From Betaproteobacteria bacterium (GTDB lineage Bacteria; Pseudomonadota; Gammaproteobacteria; Burkholderiales; Casimicrobiaceae), in NCBI GenBank assembly GCA_031430575.1, contig JANPBT010000055.1, forward strand, positions 30,820 to 54,819: 24,000 nucleotides of DNA, read 5' to 3'. Positions 41 through 22,267 of this stretch are shown one piece after another (the first letter of the stretch is position 1; the number at the start of each line of letters is the position of its first letter). A model generated the notes under the pieces. That model did not search any database. It was not told the DNA's origin and saw only the letters and a list, made by a program, of their open reading frames with translations. Both the position numbers and the translations under genes were made by a program.

Positions 41-994
41 GTGCCCGCCATGATTCCTGCGTGCGCGCACTACGCGGGCAACGAAAAATTCATTCGCAAA
101 GCGGACGATCTGCGCCGCAGGTATGCCTACCCTTTCGACATCACCTGCGATTGCGAAGACGGCGCGCCTGTCGGCCAAGAGCGCGCGCACGTTCGCCAAA
201 TCGCTGCGCTTATTACAGAACTATCGAAAGGCGGCGGGCGCTTTGGTGTGCGCATCCACGACATTTCGACGCCGCACTGGTTCGACGAAATCGACGTGCT
301 CGTCGGCGCTGCTGGAAATTCTCTGGCCTACCTCACCTTTCCCAAAGTTGATAGCGCAGAAGCGTTGCAACGCAAATTAGCACACTTAAGATCGGCTGAG
401 CGCAAATTTGGAATCGCAAGGCCGATCCCCATACATGCGATGATCGAATCGCAGGAAGGGCTTCGCAATGTCGACGCCATCGCCGCAACCTCGGCCGTTG
501 AGGCGATTGATTTTGGCGTGATGGATTTTGTCTCCGATCATGCCGGCGCGATTCCCGTATCGGCGCTGAAATCGCCAGCGCAATTCGATCATGTTTTAAT
601 GCGACGCGCGCGCGCCGAAATCGTCGCTGCGGCGCTGCGTCACGGCAAAGTAGCCGCCGATAGCGTCACCATTGAATTCACCAAACCAGAGCAAGCTAAA
701 AACGACGCGATCCGTGCGCGCACCGAGTTTGGGTATCAGCGCAAATACAGCGTGCACCCTGATCAAATTCCGCAAATTTTGCTCGGCATGCGTCCGAGCG
801 ACGAAGAAGTTGCGTTTGCATGTGGGGTCTTGCTTGCGGGCCACGACGCCGCGTGGGGCCCGATTCGGTTTCAAGATGAGCTTCACGACCGTGCCTCGTT
901 TCGCTATTTCTGGCAATTGCTCAAACGCGCACGTGCCGCGGGCGCGCAGGTTACGAAATCCGCTGAAATACGCTTTTTTGCACCATCAAAATGA
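41..994 (+). CDS. HpcH/HpaI aldolase / citrate lyase beta (CitE)-like acyl-CoA lyase family protein
   Basis: 317-aa ORF with CitE-like blocks (DCEDGAP, FPKVDSAEAL, MIESQEGLRNVDAIAA, DFGVMDF). It has a GTG start at 41, but the frame is open back to base 2, so the true start could lie at ATG 50 or off-window. Confidence 0.75.
   Translation: MPAMIPACAHYAGNEKFIRKADDLRRRYAYPFDITCDCEDGAPVGQERAHVRQIAALITELSKGGGRFGVRIHDISTPHWFDEIDVLVGAAGNSLAYLTFPKVDSAEALQRKLAHLRSAERKFGIARPIPIHAMIESQEGLRNVDAIAATSAVEAIDFGVMDFVSDHAGAIPVSALKSPAQFDHVLMRRARAEIVAAALRHGKVAADSVTIEFTKPEQAKNDAIRARTEFGYQRKYSVHPDQIPQILLGMRPSDEEVAFACGVLLAGHDAAWGPIRFQDELHDRASFRYFWQLLKRARAAGAQVTKSAEIRFFAPSK
108..123 (+). repeat. Copy of 16-mer ATCTGCGCCGCAGGTA (16/16), inside the CDS, read as LRRRY
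   Basis: Exact match read directly from the sequence. Confidence 0.9.
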
Positions 995-1022
995 GCGTGC
1001 CAGTATTACTCGCCACACCGCA

Positions 1023-1095
1023 ATCTGCGCCGCAGGTAAGTCATCGCAGAGGCTCACTAATGAAGCAAATTTCCGCACGTACCTGCGGCGCAGAT
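1023..1095. repeat. Inverted pair of the 16-mer: forward copy 1023..1038, reverse copy 1080..1095, 41-nt spacer
   Basis: Both arms are 16/16. The pair lies in the gap between the citE-like stop (994) and the prpB start (1177). Confidence 0.9.
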
Positions 1096-1176
1096 AAAAG
1101 GGTGAGAAACATTCGACCCAGCAGCTGACCCGTCATTTTTATTATTAACCGCCAACTGATTCGATAGACCGCCACT

Positions 1177-2055
1177 ATGCAAACCCCCGGACAACGCTTC
1201 CGCCAAGCACTTAAAGAAGAATCGCCCCTGCAAGTGATCGGCGCGATCAACGCCAATCATGCGCTCCTCGCGCAACGCGCGGGCTATCGCGCGATCTATT
1301 TATCGGGCGGCGGTGTCGCTGCCGGCTCGCTTGGTTTGCCCGATTTGGGCATTAACAATTTAGATGATGTGCTCACCGACATTCGCCGCATCACCGATGT
1401 GTGCGACGTGCCGCTCATGGTCGATATCGACACTGGCTTTGGCCCCTCCGCATTCAACATCGCCCGCACGGTGAAATCCCTCATCAAATTTGGCGCGGCG
1501 GCCTGCCACATCGAAGATCAAGTCGGCGCGAAACGCTGCGGCCACCGCCCGGGTAAAGAAATCGTGACTACCGAAGAAATGGTAGACCGCGTAAAAGCCG
1601 CTGCGGACGCGAAAACTGACCCCAATTTTTTCTTAATCGCCCGCACCGACGCGATACAAGTGCATGGCGTAGATGCCGCGATCGAGCGCGCGGTGAAGTG
1701 CGTCGAAGCCGGCGCTGACGGCATCTTCGCTGAAGCCGCCTATGATTTGCCGACGTACGAAAGATTTGTAAAAGCGGTGAACGCCCCCGTGCTCGCCAAC
1801 ATCACCGAGTTCGGCAAAACGCCGTTATTCACCGTTGATGAATTGAAATCGGTCGGCGTGCAAATCGTGCTCTACCCGCTCTCCGCCTTCCGTGCGATGA
1901 ACAAAGCCGCGGAAAATGTCTACACCGCCATCCGCCGCGACGGGCATCAGAAGAATGTGGTGGAGACGATGCAGACGCGCGATGAGCTTTATGACCGGAT
2001 TGGGTATCACGCGTTTGAAGAGAAGTTGGATGCGTTGTTTGCGGGGAAGAAGTAA
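1177..2055 (+). CDS. prpB: 2-methylisocitrate lyase
   Basis: 292 aa with the isocitrate-lyase/PEP-mutase fold signature [18 protein letters not shown] and a typical PrpB N-terminus (FRQAL...[25 protein letters not shown]). It sits with prpC, acnD and prpF. Confidence 0.93.
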
Positions 2056-2058
2056 TTC

Positions 2059-2319
2059 ATGCCGACGTTAAGCGCGTTTTACGGAATATTGATTCGGATG
2101 TACTTCGAGGATCACGCACCACCGCATTTTCACGCGCTTTACGGTGAATTTGAAGCATTGATTGATATTCAAAATTTGGCTGTAATTCGTGGCGCACTTC
2201 CGCGTCGCGCGCTGCAACTCACGCTTGATTGGGCAGAGTTACATCGCGAAGAATTGCTTTCGGATTGGGCGCTTTGCCAGATCGGAAAAACGCCCAACCC
2301 GATTCCACCTCTGCTGTAA
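2059..2319 (+). CDS. DUF4160 family protein
   Basis: 86 aa with the characteristic N-terminus MPTLSAFYGILIRMYFEDHAPPHFHALYGEFEA. It starts 3 nt after the prpB stop. Confidence 0.8.
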   Translation: MPTLSAFYGILIRMYFEDHAPPHFHALYGEFEALIDIQNLAVIRGALPRRALQLTLDWAELHREELLSDWALCQIGKTPNPIPPLL

Positions 2320-2336
2320 CATCAAGGAGAACTGTG

Positions 2337-2597
2337 ATGATTGACTGGCATGTTAAGTGCGTTGAGGTTACAGATGAAACTTCGCTCAGAGTAACGTTCG
2401 CCGATGGCATTTCTGGCATGGTACGCTTTGAGTCATCGCGCTTTCGAGATGCCTTCGCGCCGTTGCGCGAGCCAAAGATATTTTCCGATGTAAAGATTGA
2501 GCACGGCGCATTGACCTGGCTCAATGGCGAGATTGATCTTGCTCCTGATGCAATGTATGACCAATTGAAGGCGCATGGAGAGTGGAGATTGAGTTAG
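2337..2597 (+). CDS. DUF2442 family protein
   Basis: ATG 2337 is preceded by AAGGAG (2324..2329). The product MIDWHVKCVEVTDETSLRVTFADGISGMVRF... has DUF2442-like size and pattern. The longer 2229 start would overlap the DUF4160 gene and lacks an RBS. Confidence 0.75.
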   Translation: MIDWHVKCVEVTDETSLRVTFADGISGMVRFESSRFRDAFAPLREPKIFSDVKIEHGALTWLNGEIDLAPDAMYDQLKAHGEWRLS

Positions 2598-3004
2598 TGC
2601 ATCGAGCCAAACCAATTTGGACGCACATTACCATCCAAGTGTCCAACATCGAACAAAGCATCGCCTTTTATGAACGCTGGTGCGGCATGACTATTGTTCG
2701 GGATCGAAGAATTACGGGCGGCAACACGGTATGGATGGGCTCCTACGCAGATTCGGACAAACAACGGGATTTGCTATTGGTGCTTGACCCGGAACCGGTG
2801 ACGGATCGAATGCGGCATTTCGGATTTCAACTTGAGAACTTAATCGACTTGGACGCTATGGCGGTAGAGGCAGAACAGGCAGGTATCCTCGCTGCGCCGC
2901 CAACGCTTTTAGGGGGAGAGCTCGGGCACTACTTGATGATCCGGGATCCCGATGGGCATGACGTGGAATTTACCGTTGGGCAGCCAATTCGTGGATTGCA
3001 GTAG
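2582..3004 (+). CDS. VOC (glyoxalase/bleomycin-resistance/dioxygenase) family protein
   Basis: 140 aa with HITIQVSNIEQSIAFYERWCGM ... HFGFQL ... YLMIRDPDGHDVEF, typical of the VOC fold. The start is uncertain: GTG 2582 or in-frame GTG 2597, which overlaps the upstream TAG. Confidence 0.7.
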   Translation: MEIELVHRAKPIWTHITIQVSNIEQSIAFYERWCGMTIVRDRRITGGNTVWMGSYADSDKQRDLLLVLDPEPVTDRMRHFGFQLENLIDLDAMAVEAEQAGILAAPPTLLGGELGHYLMIRDPDGHDVEFTVGQPIRGLQ

Positions 3005-3009
3005 CCAGC

Positions 3010-3117
3010 GTAGGGTGCGCACCGTCAGTGAGAAGCATGGTATGTGCAAAGCAACATCGCCGCGGGCGACCGGTGCGCAAAAGAGCGTTGCGCACCCTAC
3101 AGGGCGTACTTTTTTTT
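3010..3117 (+). terminator. Structured intergenic element with a T8 tract; possible terminator or REP-like element
   Basis: Segment 3089..3100 can pair with 3010..3021 (12 bp) or with 3072..3080 (9 bp, GGTGCGCAA/TTGCGCACC). A T8 run at 3110..3117 follows. The element begins 6 nt after the VOC stop. Confidence 0.4.
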
Positions 3118-3144
3118 CAAGAGATAAGTTTCAAAATAGGGCAA

Positions 3145-3160
3145 TTCTGCGCCGCAGGTA
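3145..3160 (+). repeat. Copy of the 16-mer (15/16, TTCTGCGCCGCAGGTA), intergenic, ending 28 nt upstream of the prpC ATG
   Basis: Read directly from the sequence. Confidence 0.9.
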
Positions 3161-3187
3161 TTTAACAAAAAACGTAGCGAAACTCAT

Positions 3188-4351
3188 ATGACTGATACGA
3201 CATCAACCACAACGCCAGGCTTCAAACCCAAAAAATCTGTAGCCCTTTCCGGCACTGCGGCGGGCAACACCGCGTTGTGCACCGTTGGCCGCACGGGCAA
3301 CGATCTCGCCTACCGTGGCTACGATATTTTGGATATCGCCGATGACTGCGAGTTTGAGGAAATCGCGTTTTTGCTCGTTCACGGCAAGCTGCCAAACATT
3401 GCCGAGCTCGCAGGCTACAAAGCAAAGTTGAAATCGTTGCGCGGCGTGCCCGCAGCGGTGAAAGCGGCGCTCGAGCAGTTGCCTGCCTCCGCCCATCCAA
3501 TGGATGTGATGCGCACGGGCGTATCGGTGTTGGGCTGCGTCTCACCTGAAAAAGACGATCGCAATCACGCTGGCGCGCGCGACATTGCCGATAAATTGAT
3601 GGCCTCGCTCGGCTCAATGATGCTTTACTGGTATCACTTTTCGCACAACGGCAAGCGCATTGAAGTTGAAACGGACGATGATTCGATCGGCGGACATTTC
3701 CTACATCTCCTGCATGGCACGAAGCCCCCAGAAGCGTGGGTCAAGGCGATGCACGTTTCGCTCAATCTGTATGCCGAGCATGAGTTCAATGCGTCGACCT
3801 TCGCGTGCCGCGTGGTGGCGGGCACAGGTTCGGACATGCATAGCGCGATTTGCGGCGGTATCGGCGCGCTGCGCGGCCCTAAGCATGGCGGTGCCAATGA
3901 AGTGGCGTTCGAAGTGCAAAAGCGCTACGAAACGCCTGACGAAGCCGAAGCCGACATCAAAGCGCGCGTGGAGCAAAAGCAAGTGGTGATTGGCTTCGGT
4001 CATCCGGTCTATACCATCGCAGACCCGCGCAATAAAGTGATCAAAGACGTCGCGCGTAAGCTCTCAAAAGACAAAGGCGACATGAAGATGTACAACATCG
4101 CAGAGCGGCTCGAAACCGTGATGTGGGACATCAAAAAAATGTTTCCAAATCTAGATTGGTTTAGCGCAGTGAGTTATCACATGATGGGCGTGCCCACCGC
4201 CATGTTTACCCCGCTTTTTGTGATTTCGCGCACGAGCGGCTGGAGCGCGCATGTGATTGAGCAACGCATCGACGGCAAGATCATCCGCCCGAGCGCAAAT
4301 TACATCGGACCGGAAGATCAACAGTTTGTACCGATTGAAAAAAGGACGTAA
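3188..4351 (+). CDS. prpC: 2-methylcitrate synthase
   Basis: 387 aa citrate-synthase family protein ([27 protein letters not shown]) of PrpC-like length, in prp operon context. Confidence 0.93.
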
Positions 4352-4722
4352 TGAACTTTAACCACGCGATGGTGAACGTGAGCGATCTAACGAAGAGCTT
4401 GGCGTTTTATACGCAGCTCTTTGGCCAATCCGCGCGCGTGATTTCAGCGGTGGATCATTACGCACGGCTCGCATTTGCAAGTGGCACTTCTCTTTCCTTG
4501 CATGCAACAGAAGGCAAATCTGCGCCGCAGGCATCGAGCAATGCGTTGTATTTTGACTGCGACGTCGATGCGCAATTCGCACGACTACAGTCGCTAGGCG
4601 TCGTGTTTTCCCAAGCGGCGAACGATCAACCGTGGCACTGGCGGGAAGCGCATTTGAGTGATCCAGATGGTCATCCCCTCGTGCTTTTTCACGATACAGC
4701 GGCTAATCGGAGAGTGCGTTGA
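4351..4722 (+). CDS. VOC/glyoxalase family protein
   Basis: 123 aa (HAMVNVSDLTKSLAFYTQLFG ... LSDPDGHPLVLF). Its ATG overlaps the prpC TAA by 1 nt (TAATG). Confidence 0.75.
   Translation: MNFNHAMVNVSDLTKSLAFYTQLFGQSARVISAVDHYARLAFASGTSLSLHATEGKSAPQASSNALYFDCDVDAQFARLQSLGVVFSQAANDQPWHWREAHLSDPDGHPLVLFHDTAANRRVR
4518..4533 (+). repeat. Copy of the 16-mer (15/16, ATCTGCGCCGCAGGCA), inside the CDS, read as SAPQA
   Basis: Read directly from the sequence. Confidence 0.85.
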
Positions 4723-5201
4723 TCCCGAGCGCTCAGTTACTCGGCGAGCTTACCTCTCGCCGCGCCACACGCGCTGATTTGCCAGCGCTGCTCACGCTCA
4801 TCGCTGACGACGCGCTCGGTAAAAATCGCGATGCTGATCACGACCACCCGATTTATGCGGCAGCGTTTGAGCGCATTGACGCCGATCCTAATCAGTATTT
4901 GATGGTGGTTGCGCGCTTGGATGAAGTCGTCGGCATGGCGCAAATCACGCTCATCCCCGGCTTGTCGCGCAGAGGCGCGACGCGTGCGAATATTGAAGCG
5001 GTGCGGGTCGCAAGTGGATTGCGCGGGCAAGGGGTCGGCACGTGGCTCATGCTCGAAGCGCAGAAGTATGCGCAATCGCAAGGCTGCGCGTTGCTTCAAT
5101 TAACGAGTGATAAGGTGCGCGATCAAGCGCATCGCTTTTACGGGGAGCTCGGTTACGAAGCATCCCATATTGGATTTAAGCGTCGGTTGGAGATCATATG
5201 A
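4719..5201 (+). CDS. GNAT family N-acetyltransferase
   Basis: 160 aa with the acetyl-CoA binding motif RGQGVGTWLMLEAQKYAQSQG and C-terminal RFYGELGY. The TTG start overlaps the upstream TGA (TTGA). Confidence 0.82.
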   Translation: MIPSAQLLGELTSRRATRADLPALLTLIADDALGKNRDADHDHPIYAAAFERIDADPNQYLMVVARLDEVVGMAQITLIPGLSRRGATRANIEAVRVASGLRGQGVGTWLMLEAQKYAQSQGCALLQLTSDKVRDQAHRFYGELGYEASHIGFKRRLEII

Positions 5202-5932
5202 AACAAATGCAAATGTGCGCCGCAGGTATCGCCTTTTTGATCGGAGCCAGCATTGCTCAAGAGGCGAGCGCTCAACTAACCGGCTCTCGGGTCGACGGCT
5301 ACCAGCGCGAAGTTGAACAAAAACTCAAAAAATCGCGTGATGACTATCTCGTAGAAAAGGAAGCGGCACGCGCCAGCAAGGCAGCAGCGAACGCTGGATA
5401 CGGTTTTTCGAATCGGATAGAGGCTGAAGGTGTGCCGCTTTCAAAGCGCGGCTCGCAGTGGAAAATCAGCACAACCCGATATAGCTGCGCTGGCGGGCTC
5501 GCGCTGGTGACAAAGCAACGGCTTTCTTCGGCCGACTTTACCGCAGGCATCGCTGAGCGGCGCGATGCAGGCAGTACCGCGCGCGGCGCCATTTTTACCA
5601 AAAACAAACCCGATCAAATCGAGCTCGATGCGCTCGACGATCTTGATTTAAATTTAAAGAAAATCAAACCGGTTACGCTCACGTTTAAATACAAGAACTA
5701 CCAACTCAATGCCGAAAAAGCGCTTACCGGCTGGCATTTGACCAACCGAACGCAAGGTATTTCCTGGGCTGTGAAGCAAGGTAAGGGCACACTTAAAAAC
5801 TCATATTCTGGTCGCGTACTCGCGCAAGACTGCCGCGGTGGCTCACCGTTTGTTACCGATGCGCCCGAAAGCGAAGATGACGATCTCGCGCCATTCGCGG
5901 CAAGATCGTCTAGTGTTTTTATTACGAAATAG
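5198..5932 (+). CDS. Hypothetical exported protein
   Basis: 244 aa with an N-terminal signal-like segment MKQMQMCAAGIAFLIGASIAQEASAQ. Its ATG overlaps the GNAT stop (ATGA). I recognise no family. Confidence 0.6.
   Translation: MKQMQMCAAGIAFLIGASIAQEASAQLTGSRVDGYQREVEQKLKKSRDDYLVEKEAARASKAAANAGYGFSNRIEAEGVPLSKRGSQWKISTTRYSCAGGLALVTKQRLSSADFTAGIAERRDAGSTARGAIFTKNKPDQIELDALDDLDLNLKKIKPVTLTFKYKNYQLNAEKALTGWHLTNRTQGISWAVKQGKGTLKNSYSGRVLAQDCRGGSPFVTDAPESEDDDLAPFAARSSSVFITK
5213..5228 (+). repeat. Copy of the 16-mer (15/16, ATGTGCGCCGCAGGTA), codons 6-11 of the exported protein, read as CAAGI
   Basis: Read directly from the sequence. Confidence 0.85.
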
Positions 5933-6021
5933 CGACCATAGCGCGTCCGCCAAACAGCGGATGCAGCGTGGCTTCAACGAAAACTTCTACACGTACATTT
6001 AACTTCATCTGATCAACTTCG

Positions 6022-8607
6022 ATGTATAAAAAAAAGCTTCCTGGAACCACGCTTTCATATTTCGATGCCCGTGCCGCGATTGACGCGATAACACCTGGCG
6101 CCTACGCAACGCTGCCCTACACCTCGCGCGTGCTCGCGGAAAATTTAGTACGTCGCGCTGATCCGGCCAAGCTCAACGACTATCTTTCGGAACTCATTTT
6201 GCGCAAGAGTGACTTGGATTTTCCGTGGTTTCCAGCGCGCGTGGTTTGCCACGATATTCTCGGCCAAACTGCATTGGTCGATCTCGCAGGCCTACGCGAT
6301 GCCATCGCCGATGAGGGCGGCGACCCGGCGGAGGTTAATCCCGTTGTGCCAGTGCAATTGATTGTCGATCATTCGCTCGCGGTGGAGTGCGGCGGCTTCG
6401 ATCCCAATGCGTTTGAAAAAAATCGCGCGATTGAAGATCGTCGCAACGAAGATCGCTTTCATTTCATCGATTGGACGAAACGGGCATTTAAAAATGTAGA
6501 AGTGATCCCGCCGGGTAATGGCATCATGCATCAAATCAATTTGGAGCGCATGTCGCCCGTGATTACGGTGCAAGATGGCGTTGCATTCCCCGACACTTGT
6601 GTAGGCACCGATAGTCATACCCCACACATTGATGCGCTTGGCGTCATTGCGATTGGCGTCGGGGGATTGGAAGCAGAAAACGTGATGCTCGGTCGCGCAT
6701 CGTGGATGCGCTTGCCAGAGATCGTCGGTGTTGAACTTTCAGGTAAGCCGCAGGAAGGCATCACCGCGACAGACGTCGTGCTCGCGTTAACAGAATTTTT
6801 ACGGCAACAAAAAGTCGTCGGTGCCTATCTGGAATTTCGCGGCGTAGGCGCTTCCGCGCTCACGCTGGGTGATCGGGCGACAATCTCCAACATGGCGCCA
6901 GAGTATGGCGCAACGGCAGCGATGTTTTTCATTGATCAACATACGATTGATTATTTGCGGCTCACTGGCCGCGAAGACGCGCAGATTAAATTAGTTGAAT
7001 CCTATGCGAAACACACGGGGCTGTGGGCCGATGCGCTTACGACTGCCCAATATCCCCGCACGATTTCATTCGATCTTTCCACGGTCGTGCGCAATATGGC
7101 CGGACCATCAAACCCTCACGCTCGGGTTGCGACGACTGATCTTGCTTCCAAAGGCATCGCAAAACCATGGTCGCAATCTGGTGATTTGATGCCCGATGGC
7201 GCGGTCATCATCGCAGCCATTACGAGCTGCACCAACACGAGCAACCCGCGTAATGTGATCGCAGCGGGCTTGCTCGCGCGCAATGCCAATCGTCTGGGGC
7301 TCACGCGCAAGCCGTGGGTGAAATCTTCACTGGCGCCAGGCTCAAAAACGGTTGATCTCTATTTACAAGAAGCCGGGCTCAAAACCGAGCTTGAAAAATT
7401 GGGGTTCGGTATCGTAGCTTTTGCGTGTACGACGTGCAACGGCATGTCGGGCGCACTCGATCCCATCATTCAAAAAGAAATTGTTGATCGCGATCTTTAC
7501 GCAACTGCAGTGCTTTCGGGTAATCGTAATTTCGATGGCCGCATTCATCCGTATGCCAAGCAAGCCTTTTTAGCCTCGCCACCGTTGGTCGTAGCCTATG
7601 CGATTGCAGGAACGGTGCGCTTTGATATTGAGCGTGATTCTTTCGGTGCTGATGCCAATGGCAATCCGATTTTGCTGAAAGACTTGTGGCCAAGCGATGC
7701 CGAGATTGATGCAGCAGTAAAGGCTAGCGTAAAGCCAGAGCAATTCCGTAAGGTCTATGAGCCGATGTTCGCCATTGGCGTGGCCAGCACCGAGCACGTT
7801 AAGCCGCTCTACGATTGGCGCACGCAGAGCACCTACATTCGCCGCCCGCCCTATTGGGAAGGTGCGCTGGCAGGTGAGCGCACCCTGCGTGGCATGCGTG
7901 CGCTGGCTGTGCTGGGCGACAATATCACCACCGATCATCTTTCGCCTTCAAACGCGATCATGCTCGACAGTGCCGCAGGTGAATATTTAGCCAAAATGGG
8001 TCTGCCCGAGGAAGACTTTAATTCCTATGCGACCCATCGCGGCGATCATCTCACTGCGCAGCGCGCGACATTTGCCAACCCCACGCTCATGAATGAAATG
8101 GCAGTCGTTGATGGCAAAGTAAAAAAGGGCTCGCTCACTCGCGTTGAGCCCGAGGGCAAAGTCACCCGCATGTGGGACGCGATCCAAACCTACATGGAGC
8201 GCAAGCAGCCGCTCATCATTATTGGCGGCGCGGATTACGGGCAAGGCTCATCGCGTGATTGGGCGGCCAAGGGCGTGCGGCTGGCAGGTGTTGAAGTGAT
8301 CGTCGCCGAGAGTTTTGAGCGCATCCATCGCACCAATTTAGTAGGGATGGGCGTGTTGCCACTGGAATTTAAAACGGGCACCAATCGACTCACGCTTGAG
8401 CTTGATGGCAGCGAAACTTACGACGTCATCGGCGAGCGCACGCCCCGCGCCACGCTGACCGTAGTGATTCATCGCAAAAACGGCGAGCAAATCGAAGTGT
8501 CCGCGACGTGCCGACTCGATACCGCAGAAGAAGTTTCGATCTACGAAGCGGGTGGGGTATTGCAGCGCTTTGCAAAAGACTTTTTGGAAAGCAAAAAATC
8601 AGCATGA
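6022..8607 (+). CDS. acnD: Fe/S-dependent 2-methylisocitrate dehydratase (aconitase family, AcnD)
   Basis: 861 aa with an AcnD-type N-terminus (LPGTTLSYFDARAAIDAITPGAYATLPYTSRVLAENLVRR) and aconitase cluster-ligand regions ([19 protein letters not shown]). It is immediately followed by prpF. Confidence 0.92.
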   Translation: MYKKKLPGTTLSYFDARAAIDAITPGAYATLPYTSRVLAENLVRRADPAKLNDYLSELILRKSDLDFPWFPARVVCHDILGQTALVDLAGLRDAIADEGGDPAEVNPVVPVQLIVDHSLAVECGGFDPNAFEKNRAIEDRRNEDRFHFIDWTKRAFKNVEVIPPGNGIMHQINLERMSPVITVQDGVAFPDTCVGTDSHTPHIDALGVIAIGVGGLEAENVMLGRASWMRLPEIVGVELSGKPQEGITATDVVLALTEFLRQQKVVGAYLEFRGVGASALTLGDRATISNMAPEYGATAAMFFIDQHTIDYLRLTGREDAQIKLVESYAKHTGLWADALTTAQYPRTISFDLSTVVRNMAGPSNPHARVATTDLASKGIAKPWSQSGDLMPDGAVIIAAITSCTNTSNPRNVIAAGLLARNANRLGLTRKPWVKSSLAPGSKTVDLYLQEAGLKTELEKLGFGIVAFACTTCNGMSGALDPIIQKEIVDRDLYATAVLSGNRNFDGRIHPYAKQAFLASPPLVVAYAIAGTVRFDIERDSFGADANGNPILLKDLWPSDAEIDAAVKASVKPEQFRKVYEPMFAIGVASTEHVKPLYDWRTQSTYIRRPPYWEGALAGERTLRGMRALAVLGDNITTDHLSPSNAIMLDSAAGEYLAKMGLPEEDFNSYATHRGDHLTAQRATFANPTLMNEMAVVDGKVKKGSLTRVEPEGKVTRMWDAIQTYMERKQPLIIIGGADYGQGSSRDWAAKGVRLAGVEVIVAESFERIHRTNLVGMGVLPLEFKTGTNRLTLELDGSETYDVIGERTPRATLTVVIHRKNGEQIEVSATCRLDTAEEVSIYEAGGVLQRFAKDFLESKKSA

Positions 8608-9812: not shown

Positions 9813-9822
9813 CCTCGCCCTA

Positions 9823-9868: not shown

Positions 9869-9873
9869 CAGAT

Positions 9874-10703: not shown

Positions 10704-10745
10704 CGCAAATGAGTGTAATTCACCCCGCTTCTAGGGCAAAGGTGA

Positions 10746-11955: not shown

Positions 11956-11979
11956 TTATCAAAAAAAGGAAAACACCTC

Positions 11980-14900: not shown

Positions 14901-15789
14901 GTCTACTTCAGCGGGCACGCCCGATCTCAAGCGCGGCGGCGTTCCGTGGTGGGTCTGGCTCATTGGCCTTGCATTGATTGGCTGGCTGCTGAAAAGCTGC
15001 ATGACTGAGAAAGCGGTTGTCGTTGAAAAGAAGCCAGAAACCGCAATCGTGACCCCGGTCGCAGAGCCTGCAAAGCCATCGATTAGCTTCGGTAAATGGC
15101 TCGCAAGCTTGGTGGGGCCCAAAGTTGCGCTCACTGGCAACACTAAAGACCAAGCCGCAAAAGATGCACTGCTCGGCGCGGCAAAAGGCGCTTTCGGCGA
15201 AGGCAACGTGATCGACAAATTAAACGTCGATGCCAGCGCAGGCATCTGGAATTGGGAAGGCAAATGGCCAGACCTTTTCGCTTGGATGCGCGGCCCGCTC
15301 TTTCAAGCGCGCGGCGGCAATCTCGATTTCAGCGGCGATACCTTGCGCATCACCGGCAAAGTCGATACCGACGCAATCAAAGCCGATATTGAAGCTAAGC
15401 TGCGCGCCATCGTTGGCGATAAAGTCAAAATCGATAATGCGCTCGTCGTTGAAGCTGCAAAGCGCGTCGCCATCGAGGCCAACTTTGATACCGGCAGCGC
15501 CAAGATCAAGCCGCAATATTTCGCCAAGCTCAATACTTTTGCCGCGCAAGTGGCAAAAGAGGGCTTGAAAGGCGAAATCGGCGGCCACACCGATAGCGTC
15601 GGCCAAGCCGCTTCTAACCAAGCCTTGAGCGATGCCCGCGCTAACGCAGTGCGCGATTATCTGGTCAGCAAAGGCGTTAGCAAAGAAGCGCTTGCAGCAG
15701 CCGGCTACGGCGATACCAAGCCCATCGCCGACAACGTGACCCCCGACGGCAAAGCTAAAAATCGCCGGATTGAATTTACGCAGAATTAA
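11980..15789 (+). CDS. acnA: Aconitate hydratase A fused in frame to an Ala/Pro-rich linker, a single TM helix and a C-terminal OmpA-like peptidoglycan-binding domain
   Basis: 1269-aa uninterrupted ORF with RBS AAGGA upstream. About the first 895 aa are full-length AcnA, ending ...[16 protein letters not shown]. The Ala/Pro linker follows (about 14670..14930), then the TM segment [17 protein letters not shown] (about 14940..14995). The C-terminus is OmpA_C-like ([27 protein letters not shown]...[11 protein letters not shown]...NRRIEF). Confidence 0.85.
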
Positions 15790-15813
15790 ATCCCGTTCAA
15801 CGTAACAAGCCGT

Positions 15814-15856
15814 AAAAACTGCGCCGCAGGTAGTGATACCTGCGGCGCAGTTTTTT
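15814..15856. terminator. Rho-independent, potentially bidirectional terminator built from two inverted copies of the 16-mer
   Basis: A5, then CTGCGCCGCAGGTA (15819..15832), a GTGA loop, then TACCTGCGGCGCAG (15837..15850), then T6. It lies 25 nt after the acnA-fusion stop. Confidence 0.85.
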
Positions 15857-15898
15857 GTGAGGGGGTTGCAATCTGCGCTCAATCGACATGCGTTGCCG

Positions 15899-15998
15899 AA
15901 AAAAAGATGACGGCTCAGCGGTTACCCGATGAGCCGTCAGAGCTTTAAAGTAAAAACTTTTTTGTAACGCCGGATCCCATTCCATTTCGCTACAAATT
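15899..15998 (-). ncRNA. Candidate tracrRNA
   Basis: Minus-strand 15996..15961 (UUUGUAGCGAAAUGGAAUGGGAUCCGGCGUUACAAA) complements the crRNA-sense repeat at 29 of 36 positions plus one G.U pair. It is followed by a small hairpin AAAGU-UUUU-ACUUU (15960..15947). A terminator follows: 9-bp stem GACGGCUCA/UGAGCCGUC (15938..15909) plus U7 (15905..15899). A TATATT -10-like box lies at 16009..16004 on the minus strand. The 5' end is approximate. Confidence 0.7.
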
Positions 15999-16036
15999 GG
16001 AATATACAGTCGTTTGGGCGAAAAACAAAACACATC

Positions 16037-19000
16037 ATGCGAATAATCGGTTTGGATTTGGGGATTGCTTCCGTAGGCTCGGCAGTCGTTGATTTAGATG
16101 AAGTTGCTGGCATCGGGCAGATCGTTTTCGCCGGCGCGCGGGTATTCCCCGCAGCCGAAGATGCGAAGACCGGTGATTCGCTTGCTTTGCCAAGACGCAT
16201 GGCTCGCGGCATGCGCAGGCGCATTGATCGCCGCCGCTTCCGGCTTGATCGGCTCTGGGAATTGCTGACCGAGGCGGGGCTTTTCGATGCACAGGGAGGG
16301 CCGCAAGGCTTTCAGGCGCTGCTGCAAGTAAGAAGGGATGATTTCTGCGCCGCAGGTATCTCGCCTGAAGACGCCGCTGAAAAAACCGATCCTTACCGCT
16401 TGCGGGTTGCTGGGCTTGATCGCAAGCTTGCAGATTGGGAGTGGGTGCGCGCACTGATGCATATCGCCGCGCGGCGCGGCTTTCGCTCAAACTCCAAAGC
16501 CGCAGAAAGTGATGCGAAATCAGATACCGGCAAGATGAATACCGAGATTCGCAAAACCGAGAAATTGTTCGCCACTTTCGAATCCAGAACAGTCGGCGAA
16601 TACGTGCTTAAAAGCACTCAGTTTGCCGAGCATAAGCGCAACAAAGCCGGTAGCTACGCACTCACCCTCAAGCGCGATTGGCTGCGTGAAGAAATTGCAA
16701 AGCTTTTCCTAGCGCAGCGCCAATTTGGCAATTCGCACGCGAGCGAAGATCTAGAAGCAAGATTCCTTCACCGCTTTTATGAGCAAAAACACTATGACCA
16801 AGGCAACATTGATGAAATGATCGGCGAGTGCCAATTTGAGCCACGGGAGCAGCGGGCGGCGAAAGCGACATGGACGTTTCAGCTCACAATGCTTTTGCAA
16901 AAAATTAACCATTTACGTTGGTCTGGTTCCGGTGAAGCGCTGGTTTCCCTCGATGAAGCGCAGCGCAAAGCCGTGCTCGAATTGGCCATCAAGCGCCCAA
17001 AAGTGACTTACGCCCAAATCCGAAATGTCATTGAAATGCCAGATCGAGGGCGATTTAACGGCATCAGTTATCGCGAAAAACGCGGGAAAGATGGTGCGGT
17101 AAAAGAGGCTGATCCGGTCAAGGCAAGCGAAGACGCGACGTTCGTTGAAATGAAAGCCTTTCACTCGCTGCGCAAGCAAATCATTGATACCTGCGGTGAA
17201 ATTTCGTGGGAATCATTGCGCGCGCATCCTGAAAAGTTGGACGTACTTGGCAGCGCGCTGTCAAAATTCAAGGCCGATGATCGGCGCACCGAAATGATGG
17301 AGGCGGCTGGGATCGAGCCCGCAGTTATCAAGGCGGCTCTAGCCCTTTCTTTCGATGGCTTTGGCTATTTAAGCTTGCTTGCCTTGCGAAAGCTGCTGCC
17401 GCATTTGGAGGCCGGTATGCGCTACGACGAAGCGGCGACTGGTGTCTACAAAGATCATCGCGGCGTTTCCACTGTCGTTAAAACCAAGCTCCTTCCCCGC
17501 ATCCCGACCGAGGAGGTGCGCAACCCCGTAGTGCTGCGAGCGTTGACGCAAACGCGCAAGGTACTCAATGCGCTCATCCGTGAATTTGGTTCGCCAAATC
17601 GCATTCACATCGAGCTAGGGCGCGAAGTGGGCAAGAGCCGCGAAGAGCGCAATGAAGTCAAAGACGGTCAGGAAGTCTATCGCTTAGAAAAGGAAAAGGC
17701 AGCAAATCAATTTCGGGAAACATTTCCTGGATATGGTGAACCAAAAGGCGAAGACATCCTGCGCTTCCGGCTCTGGCGCGAGCAAGATAAGAGGTGCATT
17801 TACTCGGACGAATACATCAATCCCGAAAACCTGCTCGCCCAGCGCTACGTTGAAATCGATCATATCCTCCCGCTATCGCGCTCGCAGGATGACGGCATGC
17901 ACAACAAAGTGCTTTGCCTAACGGCCCAGAATCAGCGCAAGCGCAATTTCACGCCCTATGAATGGATGGGCGGCGCGGACGACTCGGATCAATGGCGGAA
18001 ATTTAAATCGCGGGTCGATTCATTGCGCGGACTTCGTAAACCAAAGCGCGACCGGCTACTGCGGGCAGATTTCACCGATGCCACCGCCGAAGGTTTTAAA
18101 GAGCGCAATTTGGTTGATACCCGCTACATCACCAAATTTTTTAAAAACTTCGTTGAAACCCATTTGGAGATTGCAGTCATCGAAGGCGATCGCCAGCCTT
18201 ACGTGCAAACCGGCTCCGGAAAGCTCACCAGCTTTTTGCGGGCACAATGGGGATTGCTCAAAGTGCGCGATGCAAGTGATCGGCATCATGCGCTCGATGC
18301 AATCGTAATCGCTTGCGCCACCAAATCGATGGAACATCGGCTGACCCGCTACCACCAAGCCATGGAAATTTACACCGATAAGCCGCACGAAGCCGCCGAA
18401 TTGCTCGATGTAAATACCGGCGAAATCACCAGCAGTCACTACCGAGATTTGCGCAAACAATTTCCAAAACCGTGGCCAGGTTTCCGCGATGATGCGATTG
18501 CCGCGCTGGAGACGGTTTTCGTTTCAAGGCCGCCGCGCCGCAAATGGAGCGGGCCGCTGCATAAAGAAACGATTTACGGCATCGGCAAAGATGCGGGTAC
18601 GATTTCCCAGCGCGTTCGCATTGAAAACGTAAAGAAATCAACGCTTGAAAAGGCGATTGATCCCGTGCGTAATAAGCTGCTTTACGATGCGATCCGTGCG
18701 CGCTTGGAATTGCACAACGACGACATCAAAAAGGCTTGGATCACCCCGCTGGAATACGACAATGGCGGCGCAGTGCGGCAGGTTCGTGCGATTACCATTG
18801 AAGACAAAATGGGCGATGGTGTGCAAGTACGCGGCGGTATTGCAGCCAACGGGGAGATCGTGCGAGTGGATGTGTATAAGGATGCGAAAGGGAAAAACTA
18901 TTTAGTGCCGATTTATATTTCTGATTTTGGGAAACCTATGCCGATGCGGGCGATTTATCAGGGTAAACCAATTTCGGAATGGCCAGTAATGGATCAAAGC

Positions 19001-19261
19001 TATTCCTTCGCGTTTTCGCTCTACAAAGACGACGTTATAGACATCGATGAGAAGGGACTTGTGTATTTTCAAAGCGTCCACAGCAGAACAAGCAATTTAA
19101 ATGTCACGAGTTCAGACAGGAGCATGAAGTGGGACGGCGTTGGGCCTAAAACTCTTAAGAAATTCAACAAAATGTCTGTCGATATCCTCGGTCGAATCTC
19201 CTACGTAAAAAAGGAACGCCATCTTGCCTTGGCAAAACGTCCTCATCAGTCAGCCGACTAA
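16037..19261 (+). CDS. cas9: Type II-C CRISPR-associated endonuclease Cas9
   Basis: 1074 aa. RuvC-I IGLDLGIASVG (D7), Arg-rich bridge helix RRMARGMRRRIDRRRFR, HNH block EIDHILPLSRSQDDGMHNKVLC...NQRKRNFTPYEW and RuvC-III HHALDAIVIA are all present. It is followed by cas1 and cas2 only, with no csn2 or cas4. Confidence 0.97.
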   Translation: MRIIGLDLGIASVGSAVVDLDEVAGIGQIVFAGARVFPAAEDAKTGDSLALPRRMARGMRRRIDRRRFRLDRLWELLTEAGLFDAQGGPQGFQALLQVRRDDFCAAGISPEDAAEKTDPYRLRVAGLDRKLADWEWVRALMHIAARRGFRSNSKAAESDAKSDTGKMNTEIRKTEKLFATFESRTVGEYVLKSTQFAEHKRNKAGSYALTLKRDWLREEIAKLFLAQRQFGNSHASEDLEARFLHRFYEQKHYDQGNIDEMIGECQFEPREQRAAKATWTFQLTMLLQKINHLRWSGSGEALVSLDEAQRKAVLELAIKRPKVTYAQIRNVIEMPDRGRFNGISYREKRGKDGAVKEADPVKASEDATFVEMKAFHSLRKQIIDTCGEISWESLRAHPEKLDVLGSALSKFKADDRRTEMMEAAGIEPAVIKAALALSFDGFGYLSLLALRKLLPHLEAGMRYDEAATGVYKDHRGVSTVVKTKLLPRIPTEEVRNPVVLRALTQTRKVLNALIREFGSPNRIHIELGREVGKSREERNEVKDGQEVYRLEKEKAANQFRETFPGYGEPKGEDILRFRLWREQDKRCIYSDEYINPENLLAQRYVEIDHILPLSRSQDDGMHNKVLCLTAQNQRKRNFTPYEWMGGADDSDQWRKFKSRVDSLRGLRKPKRDRLLRADFTDATAEGFKERNLVDTRYITKFFKNFVETHLEIAVIEGDRQPYVQTGSGKLTSFLRAQWGLLKVRDASDRHHALDAIVIACATKSMEHRLTRYHQAMEIYTDKPHEAAELLDVNTGEITSSHYRDLRKQFPKPWPGFRDDAIAALETVFVSRPPRRKWSGPLHKETIYGIGKDAGTISQRVRIENVKKSTLEKAIDPVRNKLLYDAIRARLELHNDDIKKAWITPLEYDNGGAVRQVRAITIEDKMGDGVQVRGGIAANGEIVRVDVYKDAKGKNYLVPIYISDFGKPMPMRAIYQGKPISEWPVMDQSYSFAFSLYKDDVIDIDEKGLVYFQSVHSRTSNLNVTSSDRSMKWDGVGPKTLKKFNKMSVDILGRISYVKKERHLALAKRPHQSAD
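16343..16358 (+). repeat. Copy of the 16-mer (15/16) inside cas9, read as CAAGI
   Basis: Read directly from the sequence. Confidence 0.9.
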
Positions 19262-20144
19262 GCTCTCGATTAAGCTTGGCAATCTGAGCGTCTCGCAAGC
19301 GGGGCGGGAACTTACCCTGCCGCTTGATGATATTGCCACGCTCACGTTGGAGAGCCCGCAGATCTCGCTCACCATGCCCGTGCTCGCCGCTTGCGCCGCG
19401 CGCGGCATCGCGGTTATCGTTTGTGATGACAAGCATACGCCAAACGGATTGCTGCTGCCGGTCGGCCAACACAGCAAGGCTGCGGAAATCGCCGCCCGCC
19501 AGCATGAGTGGACGCTGCGCTTTCGCGCCTTGATCTGGGCGCAATTGACCGAAGCGAAAGTGCGCGCGCAAAGTGCCGTGCTCCATACCTGCGGCGCAAA
19601 ATCGGCACGGCTCACTCGTATCATCGCAGAAATCACGGCGGAGAATGCCGCCGAGAAAGAAGCTCAAGCCGCCCGCCTTTACTGGCCGCTGCTCTTCAGC
19701 GAGGGCTTTACCCGGCAGGGAATGAGTAGCGTGAGCTTCGCGCTTGATTATGGGTATACGGTCGTGCGCGCGGCGGTTGCCCGCGCGCTCATTGCATACG
19801 GATTTCACACCGCGTGGGGCGTCCATCACCGGCATCCGCAAAATGCCTTCAACCTCGCCGACGATTTCATTGAGCCCTTCCGCCCCTTCGTCGATTGGTG
19901 GGTGCGCGGCGATGGCACGCTCGATCAAAGTGATACTCCGCTCACGCTCGCGCAACGCGCTCGGCTGACGCAAGCCTTGCAAATTGAATGCGTGCTGGAA
20001 GGCAAGCTCTATAGCCTACAAACCGCAATCGACCGCGCCGCGCAATCGCTCGCCACTGCCAGCGCGAGCGGCAATGCGGCGCACATTAAGCTGCCCTATG
20101 CGCCGCAGGTATGGAAACTCAGCGAAAGCCTGCCCGACGGTTAA
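19224..20144 (+). CDS. cas1: CRISPR-associated endonuclease Cas1 (type II)
   Basis: 306 aa. The N-terminus MPWQNVLISQPTKLSIKLGNLSV parallels type II Cas1 proteins. TTG start with AAGGA 8 nt upstream. It overlaps the cas9 3' end by 38 nt. Confidence 0.92.
   Translation: MPWQNVLISQPTKLSIKLGNLSVSQAGRELTLPLDDIATLTLESPQISLTMPVLAACAARGIAVIVCDDKHTPNGLLLPVGQHSKAAEIAARQHEWTLRFRALIWAQLTEAKVRAQSAVLHTCGAKSARLTRIIAEITAENAAEKEAQAARLYWPLLFSEGFTRQGMSSVSFALDYGYTVVRAAVARALIAYGFHTAWGVHHRHPQNAFNLADDFIEPFRPFVDWWVRGDGTLDQSDTPLTLAQRARLTQALQIECVLEGKLYSLQTAIDRAAQSLATASASGNAAHIKLPYAPQVWKLSESLPDG
19586..19601 (-). repeat. Degenerate reverse copy of the 16-mer (14/16) inside cas1
   Basis: TACCTGCGGCGCAAAA, read directly from the sequence. 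Confidence 0.75.
20096..20111 (+). repeat. Degenerate forward copy of the 16-mer (14/16, 13-nt core intact) inside the cas1 3' end
   Basis: CTATGCGCCGCAGGTA, read directly from the sequence. Confidence 0.8.
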
Positions 20145-20516: not shown

Positions 20517-20542
20517 GAATTTGATAGTGGCTATCCGCACAG

Positions 20543-20575
20543 AAAAAAAGTCCTCGCCCCTTTCGGGACAAGGAC
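20543..20575 (-). terminator. Rho-independent terminator on the minus strand, at the cas2-proximal end of the array
   Basis: The minus-strand RNA GUCCUUGUCCC-GAAA-GGGGCGAGGAC forms an 11-bp stem (9 Watson-Crick plus 2 G.U) with a GAAA tetraloop, followed by U7. On the + strand the two G.U pairs become A.C mismatches and no U-tract follows, so the element is strand-specific. Confidence 0.7.
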
Positions 20576-20588
20576 TTACGCGGGATCA

Positions 20589-22143
20589 AGTGTAGCGAAC
20601 TGGAATGGGATCAGGGGCTACAACCACGGTAAAGCACTGGGAGAGCGGCCTCAAAGTGTAGCGAACTGGAATGGGATCAGGGGCTACAACCATGGGGTAT
20701 TGACATACACCAAACTTGGGAGTGTAGCGAACTGGAATGGGATCAGGGGCTACAACGTAGGTAGCGAACCTATGCCGTAAATCCATAGTGTAGCGAACTG
20801 GAATGGGATCAGGGGCTACAACCAGAGAAACGCGCTTGAACTAAATAAGATTAGTGTAGCGAACTGGAATGGGATCAGGGGCTACAACACCCAGCAATAG
20901 AGTTTGCCTACGACCCAGAGTGTAGCGAACTGGAATGGGATCAGGGGCTACAACGCCTTACACTATCACCAGCCACCAAGGTTGAGTGTAGCGAACTGGA
21001 ATGGGATCAGGGGCTACAACAGCGCGATGCGCTCGCTCGTTGGCACGTTGAGTGTAGCGAACTGGAATGGGATCAGGGGCTACAACCACGGCGGTCGCGT
21101 GTGGGTGCTGCATATCAGTGTAGCGAACTGGAATGGGATCAGGGGCTACAACCTCGGATATAAAATTGTTACAGCGCACGATAGTGTAGCGAACTGGAAT
21201 GGGATCAGGGGCTACAACACGCAATCGGCGGCAGCCGCGTTGCGCCGCAGTGTAGCGAACTGGAATGGGATCAGGGGCTACAACTTGCATCCGCAAGCGG
21301 TTCGGCCTCAAGGTAGTGTAGCGAACTGGAATGGGATCAGGGGCTACAACCCTACCGCCGGTGCTAACAACGCCGTGCGAAGTGTAGCGAACTGGAATGG
21401 GATCAGGGGCTACAACACAGCTAATTGACAAGATGCTGAAAGATGAAGTGTAGCGAACTGGAATGGGATCAGGGGCTACAACATCTACCTTCGATTTCGT
21501 CATGCAAAACTTAGTGTAGCGAACTGGAATGGGATCAGGGGCTACAACAGATTTCTGCGATCACTAAAGCGACGGCACAGTGAAGCGAACTGGAATGGGA
21601 TCAGGGGCTACAACGTGATCGCCGTATTCTTGGGCTTGACGATTAGTGTAGCGAACTGGAATGGGATCAGGGGCTACAACACACGTACTGCAACTACCTT
21701 ACCTGCGGCGAGTGTAGCGAACTGGAATGGGATCAGGGGCTACAACGCGATCAATGACGGCGGCTTTAACGGCTAAAAGTGTAGCGAACTGGAATGGGAT
21801 CAGGGGCTACAACTGTTTGTAATAAATAGTTCCGGCTATGACGAGTGTAGCGAACTGGAATGGGATCAGGGGCTACAACCGGCGGGCTTGAATGCGCTTA
21901 CCAGCGCATAGTGTAGCGAACTGGAATGGGATCAGGGGCTACAACTCAAACGGCCACCACCACGTAATCCGTAGGAGTGTAGCGAACTGGAATGGGATCA
22001 GGGGCTACAACCCACCTTTAACGACGCAGCATTGTGTTTGAAGTGTAGCGAACTGGAATGGGATCAGGGGCTACAACTAAGCGATGATAACCGCGTCAAC
22101 CATATCGAGTGTAGCGAACTGGAATGGGATCAGGGGCTACAAC
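20589..22143 (-). CRISPR. CRISPR array with 24 repeats of 36 nt and 23 spacers (22 of 30 nt, one of 31 nt at 21747..21777)
   Basis: The repeat on the + strand is AGTGTAGCGAACTGGAATGGGATCAGGGGCTACAAC. Its minus-strand reading GTTGTAGCCCCTGATCCCATTCCAGTTCGCTACACT resembles the Neisseria II-C repeat class (GTTGTAGC...GCTACA.T). Orientation is supported by the tracrRNA anti-repeat and the minus-strand terminator at 20543..20575. Repeat 16 (21579..21614) carries one SNP at 21583. Confidence 0.97.
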
Positions 22144-22213
22144 CGACGCGAGTGCGCCCCCTCTCGGGGGCACCCGCGCATCGAGTGGCTGCGCCACAGG
22201 TCACTAAAAAATC

Positions 22214-22267
22214 AATACCTGCGGCGCAGATTTGCCATTTTTGAGCCATTTCTGCGCCGCAGGTATT
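22214..22267. repeat. Inverted pair of the 16-mer with 17-nt arms and a 20-nt loop; on the minus strand it is followed by GA plus U6
   Basis: AATACCTGCGGCGCAGA (22214..22230) and TCTGCGCCGCAGGTATT (22251..22267) are reverse complements. An A6 run at 22206..22211 on the + strand gives the minus-strand U-tract. Confidence 0.85.

Follow-up and report, generated by a model that had tools for sequence, protein, structure and literature searches.

The subject of this analysis is an oriented 16-nt motif, ATCTGCGCCGCAGGTA, which recurs throughout a 24,000-nt stretch of bacterial DNA (the window; coordinates count from its first letter) and which we regard as a candidate DNA uptake sequence. The window begins with a gene for an HpcH-like lyase, followed by the methylcitrate genes prpB, prpC, acnD, and prpF with small genes between them. 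After prpF come a vapBC-like pair, a DUF3617 lipoprotein gene, an aconitase open reading frame (ORF), cas9-cas1-cas2, a CRISPR array of 24 repeats (20588 to 22144), and a glycosyltransferase gene.

Copies of the motif in the window

An exact search of both strands of the window recovered 17 copies of the 13-mer TGCGCCGCAGGTA, the number given by the first-pass annotation. With up to two mismatches allowed, the 16-mer was present 18 times (7 exact copies, 9 with one mismatch, and 2 with two), and all 18 coordinates and strands in that annotation were correct. This corresponds to a density of 0.79 copies per kb. The 18th copy, at 4518, departs from the 13-mer in that it reads GGCA. In dinucleotide-preserving shuffles the 13-mer never appeared, and the 16-mer with two or fewer mismatches averaged 0.03 matches; assuming independent, identically distributed bases at 54% G+C, 0.001 copies of the 13-mer would be anticipated. 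Just two one-mismatch copies of the 13-mer were observed, the copy at 4518 and TGCGCCGTAGGTA at 9392 to 9404 on the minus strand within prpF. Since degenerate copies are so few, the motif family is sharply bounded. No k-mer in the window was repeated comparably except the CRISPR repeat, and scans of the window for Rfam families and tRNAs returned no match. The conserved core is TGCGCCGCAGGTAT (ATACCTGCGGCGCA on the other strand), with an invariant length of 13 to 14 nt.

The first-pass annotation had placed ten copies inside coding sequences, and for 8 of the 18 this was borne out. Five are firmly intragenic. The GGCA variant (4518 to 4533, plus strand) falls at amino acid 56 of 123 in a glyoxalase-family gene and encodes KSAPQA. 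The copy at 10995 to 11010 (minus strand) lies antisense to the gene at amino acid 60 of 84 of an AbrB-type, vapB-like antitoxin and encodes NTCGAD. In cas9, the copy at 16343 to 16358 (plus strand; FCAAGI) is found at amino acid 103, in a variable loop where distant Cas9 homologues have gaps. cas1 has two copies, one antisense to the gene at amino acid 121 (19586 to 19601, minus strand; HTCGAK) and one at amino acid 291 (20096 to 20111, plus strand). The first of these sites also is occupied in a 91%-identical Cas1 from another metagenome; at the second, the flank is polymorphic between strains and the core is kept. The remaining three copies are near N termini: an exact 16-mer at 108 to 123 (plus strand), at amino acid 23 in the N-terminal part of the HpcH/HpaI-like lyase (DLRRRY), and two in signal peptides, at amino acid 6 of a 244-amino-acid hypothetical protein (5213 to 5228, plus strand; MCAAGI) and at amino acid 7 of the DUF3617 protein (11518 to 11533, plus strand; FCAAGI). 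Of the other copies, those at 22216 and 22250 overlap only an unsupported 100-amino-acid ORF. The copy at 8618 to 8633 (plus strand), previously assigned to prpF, is outside the conserved PrpF body at the acnD-prpF junction, either in a 30-nt spacer or in an N-terminal extension without counterpart in relatives.

The window proteins are recorded from one 57,020-bp NCBI contig and from two Logan runs, and the runs SRR20217180 and SRR20217191 carry the window strain. The codon preceding the second cas1 core has the alleles TAT (Tyr), TCT (Ser), and ATT (Ile) (window 20098, L042 5470, and L074 1892). The Ser allele matches the motif consensus, so that the change from the window's TAT to TCT shifts the flank toward consensus; strains of the window species show no other difference at a motif site.

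None of the six reading frames of the motif contains a stop codon. It had been claimed that the motif is translated in every frame; five of the six are used in window genes (LRRRY, SAPQ, CAAGI, TCGA, and YLRRR), and the sixth, IPAAQ, is absent there.

The intergenic copies include a single copy 27 nt upstream of prpC (3145 to 3160, plus strand), with an extended flank of T-run, GAGA, A-run, GGC, and ATTC, and four inverted pairs. The pairs all are at gene ends, as the first-pass annotation had stated, and each is predicted to fold strongly, with stems of 16 to 23 bp and z scores of about -4 to -9. The pair at 1023 to 1038 (plus) and 1080 to 1095 (minus), 3' of the lyase gene and 5' of prpB, would form a long hairpin with a 41-nt spacer (free energy [dG], -44.7 kcal/mol; z, -4.25). 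Between prpF and a convergent gene encoding 149 amino acids, the pair at 9825 to 9840 (minus) and 9851 to 9866 (plus) gives a hairpin of 19 to 23 bp on either strand (dG, -37.6 and -41.8 kcal/mol; z, -9.05 and -8.35). The pair at 15817 to 15832 (plus) and 15837 to 15852 (minus) directly follows the stop codon of the aconitase ORF (dG, -43.0 kcal/mol; z, -6.12) and comprises an A-run, a 19-bp stem, a 4-nt GUGA loop, and a T-run; by its sequence it has the full form of a terminator, of the bidirectional intrinsic kind. The fourth pair, at 22216 to 22231 (minus) and 22250 to 22265 (plus), lies between the CRISPR array and the glycosyltransferase gene and has an 18-bp stem (dG, -38.8 kcal/mol; z, -8.87). 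Spacing within the pairs varies (4, 10, 18, and 41 nt), and head-to-head and tail-to-tail arrangements both are present. The other 10 of the 18 copies are unpaired, 8 on the plus strand and 2 on the minus strand.

Two of the features that adjoin these pairs deserve separate mention. The aconitase ORF (11980 to 15789, plus strand; 1,269 amino acids) consists of a complete AcnA aconitase (amino acids 1 to 898) whose reading frame stays open through an Ala/Pro-rich linker, a transmembrane helix, a BON-like domain, and an OmpA-type peptidoglycan-binding domain. A cytoplasmic Fe-S enzyme on an envelope anchor is odd; the fusion may be real, or it may stem from the loss of a stop codon or from misassembly. 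In the type II-C CRISPR array, 24 repeats of 36 nt are separated by spacers of about 30 nt. This array is missing in Logan assemblies of the same strain (L042, 5885 to 6287; L044, 557 to 959), in which cas2 and the glycosyltransferase gene are 402 nt apart. Either repeat collapse in assembly or real strain variation could account for this.

Related genomes and dialects

The carriers of the motif are a small group of uncultured freshwater Betaproteobacteria, in which it occurs about once per 1 to 2 kb in genes and spacers alike. Among the matches listed in a genome-collection scan with the 16-mer were two 2-kb contigs of the metagenome-assembled genome (MAG) "Betaproteobacteria bacterium OTE_75_metabat_118" (JANMDS01), each with one copy, 43 nt past gspE in one and inside a molybdopterin oxidoreductase gene in the other; apart from one MAG, the matches listed were mostly chance singletons. 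Sister contigs were reached through the 90%-identity cluster of the MAG GspE, which led to JGI contigs of up to 175 kb. In Ga0654436_0000042, the 21.7-kb gspE region contained 9 exact and 3 one-mismatch copies. Extension both ways to 40.1 kb, taking in a porin gene, COQ7, greA, rml genes, a lipopolysaccharide ABC transporter, and a full type II secretion system (T2SS) operon among others, raised this to 16 exact and 3 one-mismatch copies (0.47 per kb), 8 of the 19 in genes. The same T2SS region of a second genome (Ga0654462_0000033; 21.7 kb) had 9 exact copies and 1 with one mismatch (0.46 per kb). A 3.1-kb contig encoding the 91%-identical Cas1 (about 80% DNA identity) had three copies, at both cas1 sites and at the site after the CRISPR array. 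The near-random density outside the window that the first-pass annotation had considered was not found: at unrelated loci of related metagenome contigs, the core was present at 0.46 to 0.97 copies per kb.

In the closest motif-less relatives, 81 kb covering syntenic prp loci (87%-identical AcnD) and T2SS loci (84%-identical GspE) contained no copy, even with one mismatch allowed, nor was any other word hyper-abundant there. A metagenome scan with a window-type 19-mer found six chance singletons; the pattern was too strict for the sister dialect (TTTTGCG...) described below. The motif is real, sharply defined, oriented, and lineage-wide, and the sequences compared indicate that it is genome-wide within a narrow lineage and restricted to it. 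The best named matches, at the protein level, were to Burkholderiales, Ralstonia, Methylibium, and Casimicrobiaceae, and Neisseriaceae were missing from the top lists; these protein matches suggest a Burkholderiales/Casimicrobiaceae-like betaproteobacterial host.

One of the motif-less relatives (GCA_043767585.1; JAYUGS010000156.1) has an ordinary REP-like repeat of its own, GTAGGGTGGGCAACAAGTTGCCCAC, present 3 to 4 times in 15 kb. Its prp locus has the same unusual insertions as the window, with a DUF4160/DUF2442 pair following prpB and an antitoxin/PIN pair following prpF.

Two viral-collection scans returned singletons only, apart from one phage contig, IMGVR_UViG_3300043409_002969 (1 to 9782), with 3 exact and several degenerate copies at near-host density. 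The contig carries a head module (small and large terminase subunits, portal, protease, major head protein, and adaptor), and its copies include a pair with extended flank 3' of the major head gene. It is probably a phage or prophage of the motif lineage. Its copies could be a host marker or could be a sign that the process that makes the motif acts on all resident DNA.

Comparison of the copies revealed two genome-level dialects with the same core. Of 20 window-type copies (window and MAG), 16 have C at the base preceding the core (-1), and of 25 copies on three sister contigs, 24 have T there (Fisher P = 1e-7). The downstream T (GGTAT) never varies in the sister genomes and is weaker among window-type copies. 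Where sites are orthologous, the dialect-specific flank of 4 nt goes with the genome. After gspE it reads AATC in the MAG, CTTT in one sister genome, and ATTC in the second; after the CRISPR array it reads AATC in the window and TTTT in the cas1 contig. The dyad CTGCG-C-CGCAG, previously taken as part of the core, is not kept in the sister dialect, where the conserved unit is the asymmetric TGCGCCGCAGGTAT(T), and thus the dyad is not essential. Across 10 orthologous sites of two sister genomes, there were 7 differences in 130 core positions, against a background of 10 to 17% in the aligned DNA (P of about 0.001 at 14% background).

The length of 16 nt originally assigned also proved too short for the intergenic copies, which carry a one-sided extended flank with T- or A-tracts at -4 to -1, -14 to -9, -24 to -21, and -34 to -30. 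These tracts are about 10 bp apart, approximately one helical turn, and the stretches separating them include conserved G/C positions; TTTTT-gGAGA-nn-tGCc-n-AAAAAA-tGGC-n-aTTT-core is a typical copy. In unpaired copies of the sister genomes, A/T content is at least 0.9 at -34 to -30, -14 to -9, and -4 to -1 and 0.7 to 0.9 at -24 to -21. Three inverted pairs are present in the 40-kb sister region, 13 of its 19 copies being unpaired. Pairs in the sister genomes are palindromes of about 75 nt in which two extended units overlap in the A/T-tract region, and at several loci they have 31-nt arms, AATACCTGCGGCGCAAATTAGCTATTTTTTT, and a loop of about 13 nt. One spacer with a motif site, between gspE and gspF in Ga0654462_0000033 (L078:11704-12006), is expanded to about 300 nt by DNA with G- and C-rich runs (CCCTCCCCCCGGGGGGGAGGG...), all of which is lacking in L077 and L004.

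The share of copies located in genes is 42 to 45% (8 of 18 in the window and 8 of 19 in the 40.1-kb region). The IPAAQ frame occurs in L020 and dominates in the sister genome, where it is used by 6 of the 8 gene copies of the 40-kb region; a frame bias of this sort is known for DNA uptake-enhancing sequences (DUES). Gene copies carry only the core and about 4 nt. In RmlD and in a NIF3/YbgI homologue, the motif residues (EIPAAQK and EIPAAQN, respectively) align with solved enterobacterial orthologues with a length difference of one residue or less. Since these proteins are alignable through the motif residues, the gene copies appear from the alignments to have arisen as substitutions and not as insertions. 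Confinement of the motif to a mobile or repeat element family, which the first-pass annotation had allowed for, is not what we see. Other gene copies occupy a Pro/Ala-rich C-terminal tail in GspL and, twice, the hypervariable linker after the signal peptide of GspD. Intergenic copies are overrepresented relative to the coding fraction (P of about 1e-5 to 4e-7), and intergenic enrichment likewise is reported for DUES; in published genomes, uptake sequences within genes occupy permissive, poorly conserved positions. At the sequence level, the pattern of gene copies is the published uptake-sequence pattern, unlike what a mobile element would give.

Several secreted proteins start with a signal peptide encoded by the motif. 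The extended motif at these gene starts encodes the N terminus M-x-K-x-x-x-F-C-A-A-G-I... (window 5198 to 5260 and 11500 to 11560; L077:14481-14530), with the A-tract supplying Lys codons AAA (MKQ, MLK, or MKK) and the core the start of the hydrophobic region.

Known uptake sequences and competing explanations

In the literature consulted (to late 2025), the motifs described with this length, density, and gene/intergenic spread are all DUES, and sequence-specific DNA uptake is known from two families only, Neisseriaceae (DNA uptake sequence [DUS]) and Pasteurellaceae (uptake signal sequence [USS], with Hin-USS and Apl-USS). Full-text literature searches for the motif string returned only unrelated primers and sequences. 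DUES are overrepresented on both strands at about 1 copy per kb, compared with 0.46 to 0.79 per kb for the candidate motif in the regions counted. The resemblance to the USS is close in several respects. The Haemophilus USS (Hin-USS, AAGTGCGGT) likewise combines a core with one-sided A/T tracts a helical turn apart, the Pasteurellaceae USS likewise is found in genes and spacers, on both strands, and as inverted pairs at gene ends, and its essential inner core, GCGG, is present in the candidate motif as TGCGG; hundreds to thousands of copies per genome are implied here as well. However, the USS core is 9 nt (AAGTGCGGT or ACAAGCGGT) and otherwise unrelated in sequence to the 13 to 14 nt of the candidate, and the USS has two A/T tracts, whereas the candidate has four with conserved G/C bases between them. 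The host appears from its protein matches to be a betaproteobacterium, is not one of the Pasteurellaceae, and is not classed as gammaproteobacterial. Membership in the Pasteurellaceae USS was rejected on core sequence, core length, and host.

The motif shares with the Neisseriaceae DUS its density (about 0.5 to 0.8 per kb), terminator-like inverted pairs, and dialects in which the inner core is fixed and flanking positions vary by species; the gene-located share reported for the DUS in N. meningitidis is 34%, compared with 42 to 45% here. DUS dialects are 10- to 12-mers with an invariant CTG at +6 to +8 and A at +10. The reverse complement of the candidate, AATAC-CTG-CG-GCGCA, contains the CTG, but has G at +10 and six further invariant bases. 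With +10 not A, a longer core, and no Neisseriaceae affinity in the protein matches, membership in the Neisseriaceae DUS was rejected too. The sequence of AG-eikDUS, which we take to be AGGCTACCTGAA, shares TACCTG with this reverse complement. The first-pass view that the sequence is unlike DUS or USS holds insofar as it is a dialect of neither, yet the reverse-complement core ATACCTGCGGCGCA contains CTGCGG, in which the DUS core CTG overlaps the USS core GCGG and which thus holds both inner cores. This overlap may be a coincidence.

Several explanations other than uptake were considered. The abundance, shortness, long intergenic hairpins from inverted pairs, and orientation conferred by asymmetric flanks also are features of repetitive extragenic palindromic (REP) sequences, the BIME and REPIN formed from them, and the Ssn-related NTS repeats. 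A small non-autonomous mobile element (REP/REPIN-like or MITE-like) accordingly could have the motif as its conserved head, the paired palindrome of about 75 nt being the mobile unit, moved by an REP-associated tyrosine transposase (RAYT) or another transposase, and the single copies its remnants. The 31-nt arms and loop shared by sister-genome pairs at several loci would fit such a unit, as would the 35 to 45 nt of flank common to intergenic singles and a copy between gspF and gspG that, compared with a motif-less relative, has the appearance of a 31-nt insertion. REP, BIME, REPIN, and NTS repeats, however, are almost exclusively extragenic (2% in genes for NTS), and each of their units is a hairpin, whereas nearly half of the copies here are in real genes, as the core and about 4 nt, in proteins within one residue of the length of their orthologues. 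The core alone, with a 4-bp dyad around one base, cannot fold, the window pairs are heterogeneous in spacing and orientation, and about 90 kb of lineage sequence contained no GTAG-type heads, target-site duplications, RAYT, or transposase. Identity with REP, BIME, REPIN, or MITE was rejected on the substitution origin of the gene copies and the lack of a unit hairpin and of a transposase, and because the gene copies arose by substitution, we consider the mobile-element explanation improbable. The pairs also could be the primary structures, with the copies being halves of intrinsic terminators duplicated around the genome. All four window pairs are at gene ends and fold strongly, and one has the complete A-run, stem, and T-run. 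Against this, most copies are single, many are in genes or in short spacers within operons (gspE|gspF|gspG), pairs whose 5' flanks face each other have no U-tail, and none of the four pairs was among the terminator-like sites listed by a consensus scan (which covered positions 1 to 20000 only). A terminators-only explanation was rejected because most copies are single, and we regard it as very unlikely.

Other explanations leave the pairs aside and look to the chromosome. The motif might be kept for a reason other than uptake, as the site of an abundant DNA-binding or DNA-processing protein (in nucleoid organization, repair, recombination, or a modification system) or through biased repair or gene conversion, as is suspected for the cyanobacterial HIP1. 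HIP1, GCGATCGC, also is hyper-abundant inside and outside genes and lineage specific, and its function is unproven; it is a perfect 8-bp palindrome with no orientation, extended flank, or habit of forming pairs or terminators, whereas the candidate motif is oriented, flanked, and paired. Genome-wide presence in genes and spacers, core conservation, and dialects would be expected equally if the motif were kept in this way. The copies in the phage head module, as if the maker of the motif acts on all resident DNA, slightly favor it, and the lack of competence genes in the 90 kb of lineage sequence fits as well. On the other side, one-sided phased A/T tracts and terminator-forming pairs closely match the USS and DUS pattern, and we know of no such system in which an asymmetric site of 14 nt recurs about once per 2 kb: parS, matS, SlmA sites, KOPS, and Chi either occur much less often or are strand-skewed sites of at most 8 nt, and repair-driven biases involve words of 4 to 8 nt. 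We therefore consider maintenance for a non-uptake reason unlikely, if less so than a mobile origin. The 8:2 skew of window singles to the plus strand might suggest that the motif is a polar signal in the chromosome, like Chi or KOPS. Singles in the 40-kb region are divided 6:7, so that the strict co-orientation considered by the first-pass annotation is not seen, and neither Chi nor KOPS motifs exceed 8 nt; with a core of 13 to 14 nt and no consistent skew, this explanation was rejected. The motif could instead be the target of an Ssn-type single-strand nuclease of the lineage, and one sister genome does have an Ssn-type GIY-YIG gene. That gene is bordered by a different, NTS-like hairpin repeat, CGTCATCCCGGCGAAGGCCGGGATCC, and not by the motif, and since another repeat flanks the nuclease gene, an Ssn target was rejected also. 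A role of either kind seems scarcely probable.

The GIY-YIG gene merits description in its own right. It encodes a protein of 95 amino acids in Ga0654462_0000033 (L078:5700-6210; gene, 5781 to 6068), lies between AAA ATPase and VWA genes, and is absent at the same position in L077. The hairpin repeats that flank it on both sides, CGTCATCCCGGCGAAGGCCGGGATCC and TGTCATTCCGGCGAAGGCCGGAATCTC, are closely similar to published NTS/SRM sequences, the targets of the Ssn single-strand nucleases that in Neisseria modulate transformation. As judged from its sequence, the NTS-like repeat constitutes a further repeat system of the lineage, distinct from the motif. A PDB sequence search with the GIY-YIG protein gave no match.

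A candidate self-DNA tag

By analogy with the known systems, we favor the reading that the motif is a lineage-specific self-DNA tag of the DUES kind outside Neisseriaceae and Pasteurellaceae, to which we assign a probability of roughly 55%. Every sequence hallmark of a DNA uptake sequence that was checked is present. The first-pass proposal of a candidate DNA uptake sequence accordingly stands as far as its sequence-level predictions are concerned (genome-wide occurrence, copies in genes, pairs, dialects, and core constraint), with the function proposed by analogy.

Several observations weigh against an uptake function. In about 90 kb of lineage sequence we saw neither competence nor type IV pilus genes, the only pilus-like system there being a classical T2SS. 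The phage structural module carries the motif at near-host density, and DUES tend to be missing from recently acquired DNA. The invariant core is 13 to 14 nt, compared with 9 to 12 nt in known DUES. The flank of about 35 to 45 nt shared by intergenic copies includes conserved G/C bases (GAGA, GCC, and GGC) beyond the A/T tracts and, together with the insertion-like copy between gspF and gspG, hints at copy-and-paste spread of a longer unit. Finally, HIP1 is a precedent for a motif that is hyper-abundant inside and outside genes with no demonstrated link to uptake.

If the motif is an uptake sequence, a surface receptor of a type IV pilus or competence system, most likely a minor pilin, would bind double-stranded DNA that carries the core (the predicted receptor for the USS is ComN/PpdA). 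Binding would lead to preferential import and recombination of conspecific fragments, and each import that replaced a near match with a match would spread the motif by molecular drive. Selection would restrict it to tolerant positions, such as intergenic spacers, signal peptides, loops, and low-complexity linkers, and inverted pairs at gene ends would have been co-opted as stem-loops. Were receptor specificity to change between sister species, the flank preferred across the genome would change with it, as in the C versus T at -1.

Both known DUES families are host associated, and the origin of specificity and the shared ancestry of DUS and USS still are debated; a recent proposal holds that recognition of DUS and USS by minor pilins reflects divergence from a common origin and not convergence. 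We would give even odds that the motif represents a third uptake-sequence system, in freshwater Betaproteobacteria, that would be the first in environmental, non-host-associated bacteria and, with a core (ATACCTGCGGCGCA) that joins CTG to GCGG and with USS-like phased tracts, a possible link to a common origin of DUS and USS. The motif, its two dialects, and the carrier contigs are defined pieces for a functional test, and in metagenomics the motif would serve as a marker that assigns contigs and phages to the lineage. Its origin is apparently recent, because sister lineages at 84 to 87% protein identity are without it. If the interpretation is correct, this would be a young system in which to study motif origin and the coevolution of receptor pilin and motif, and a third case with its own dialects would mean that self-DNA tagging is more widespread than thought.

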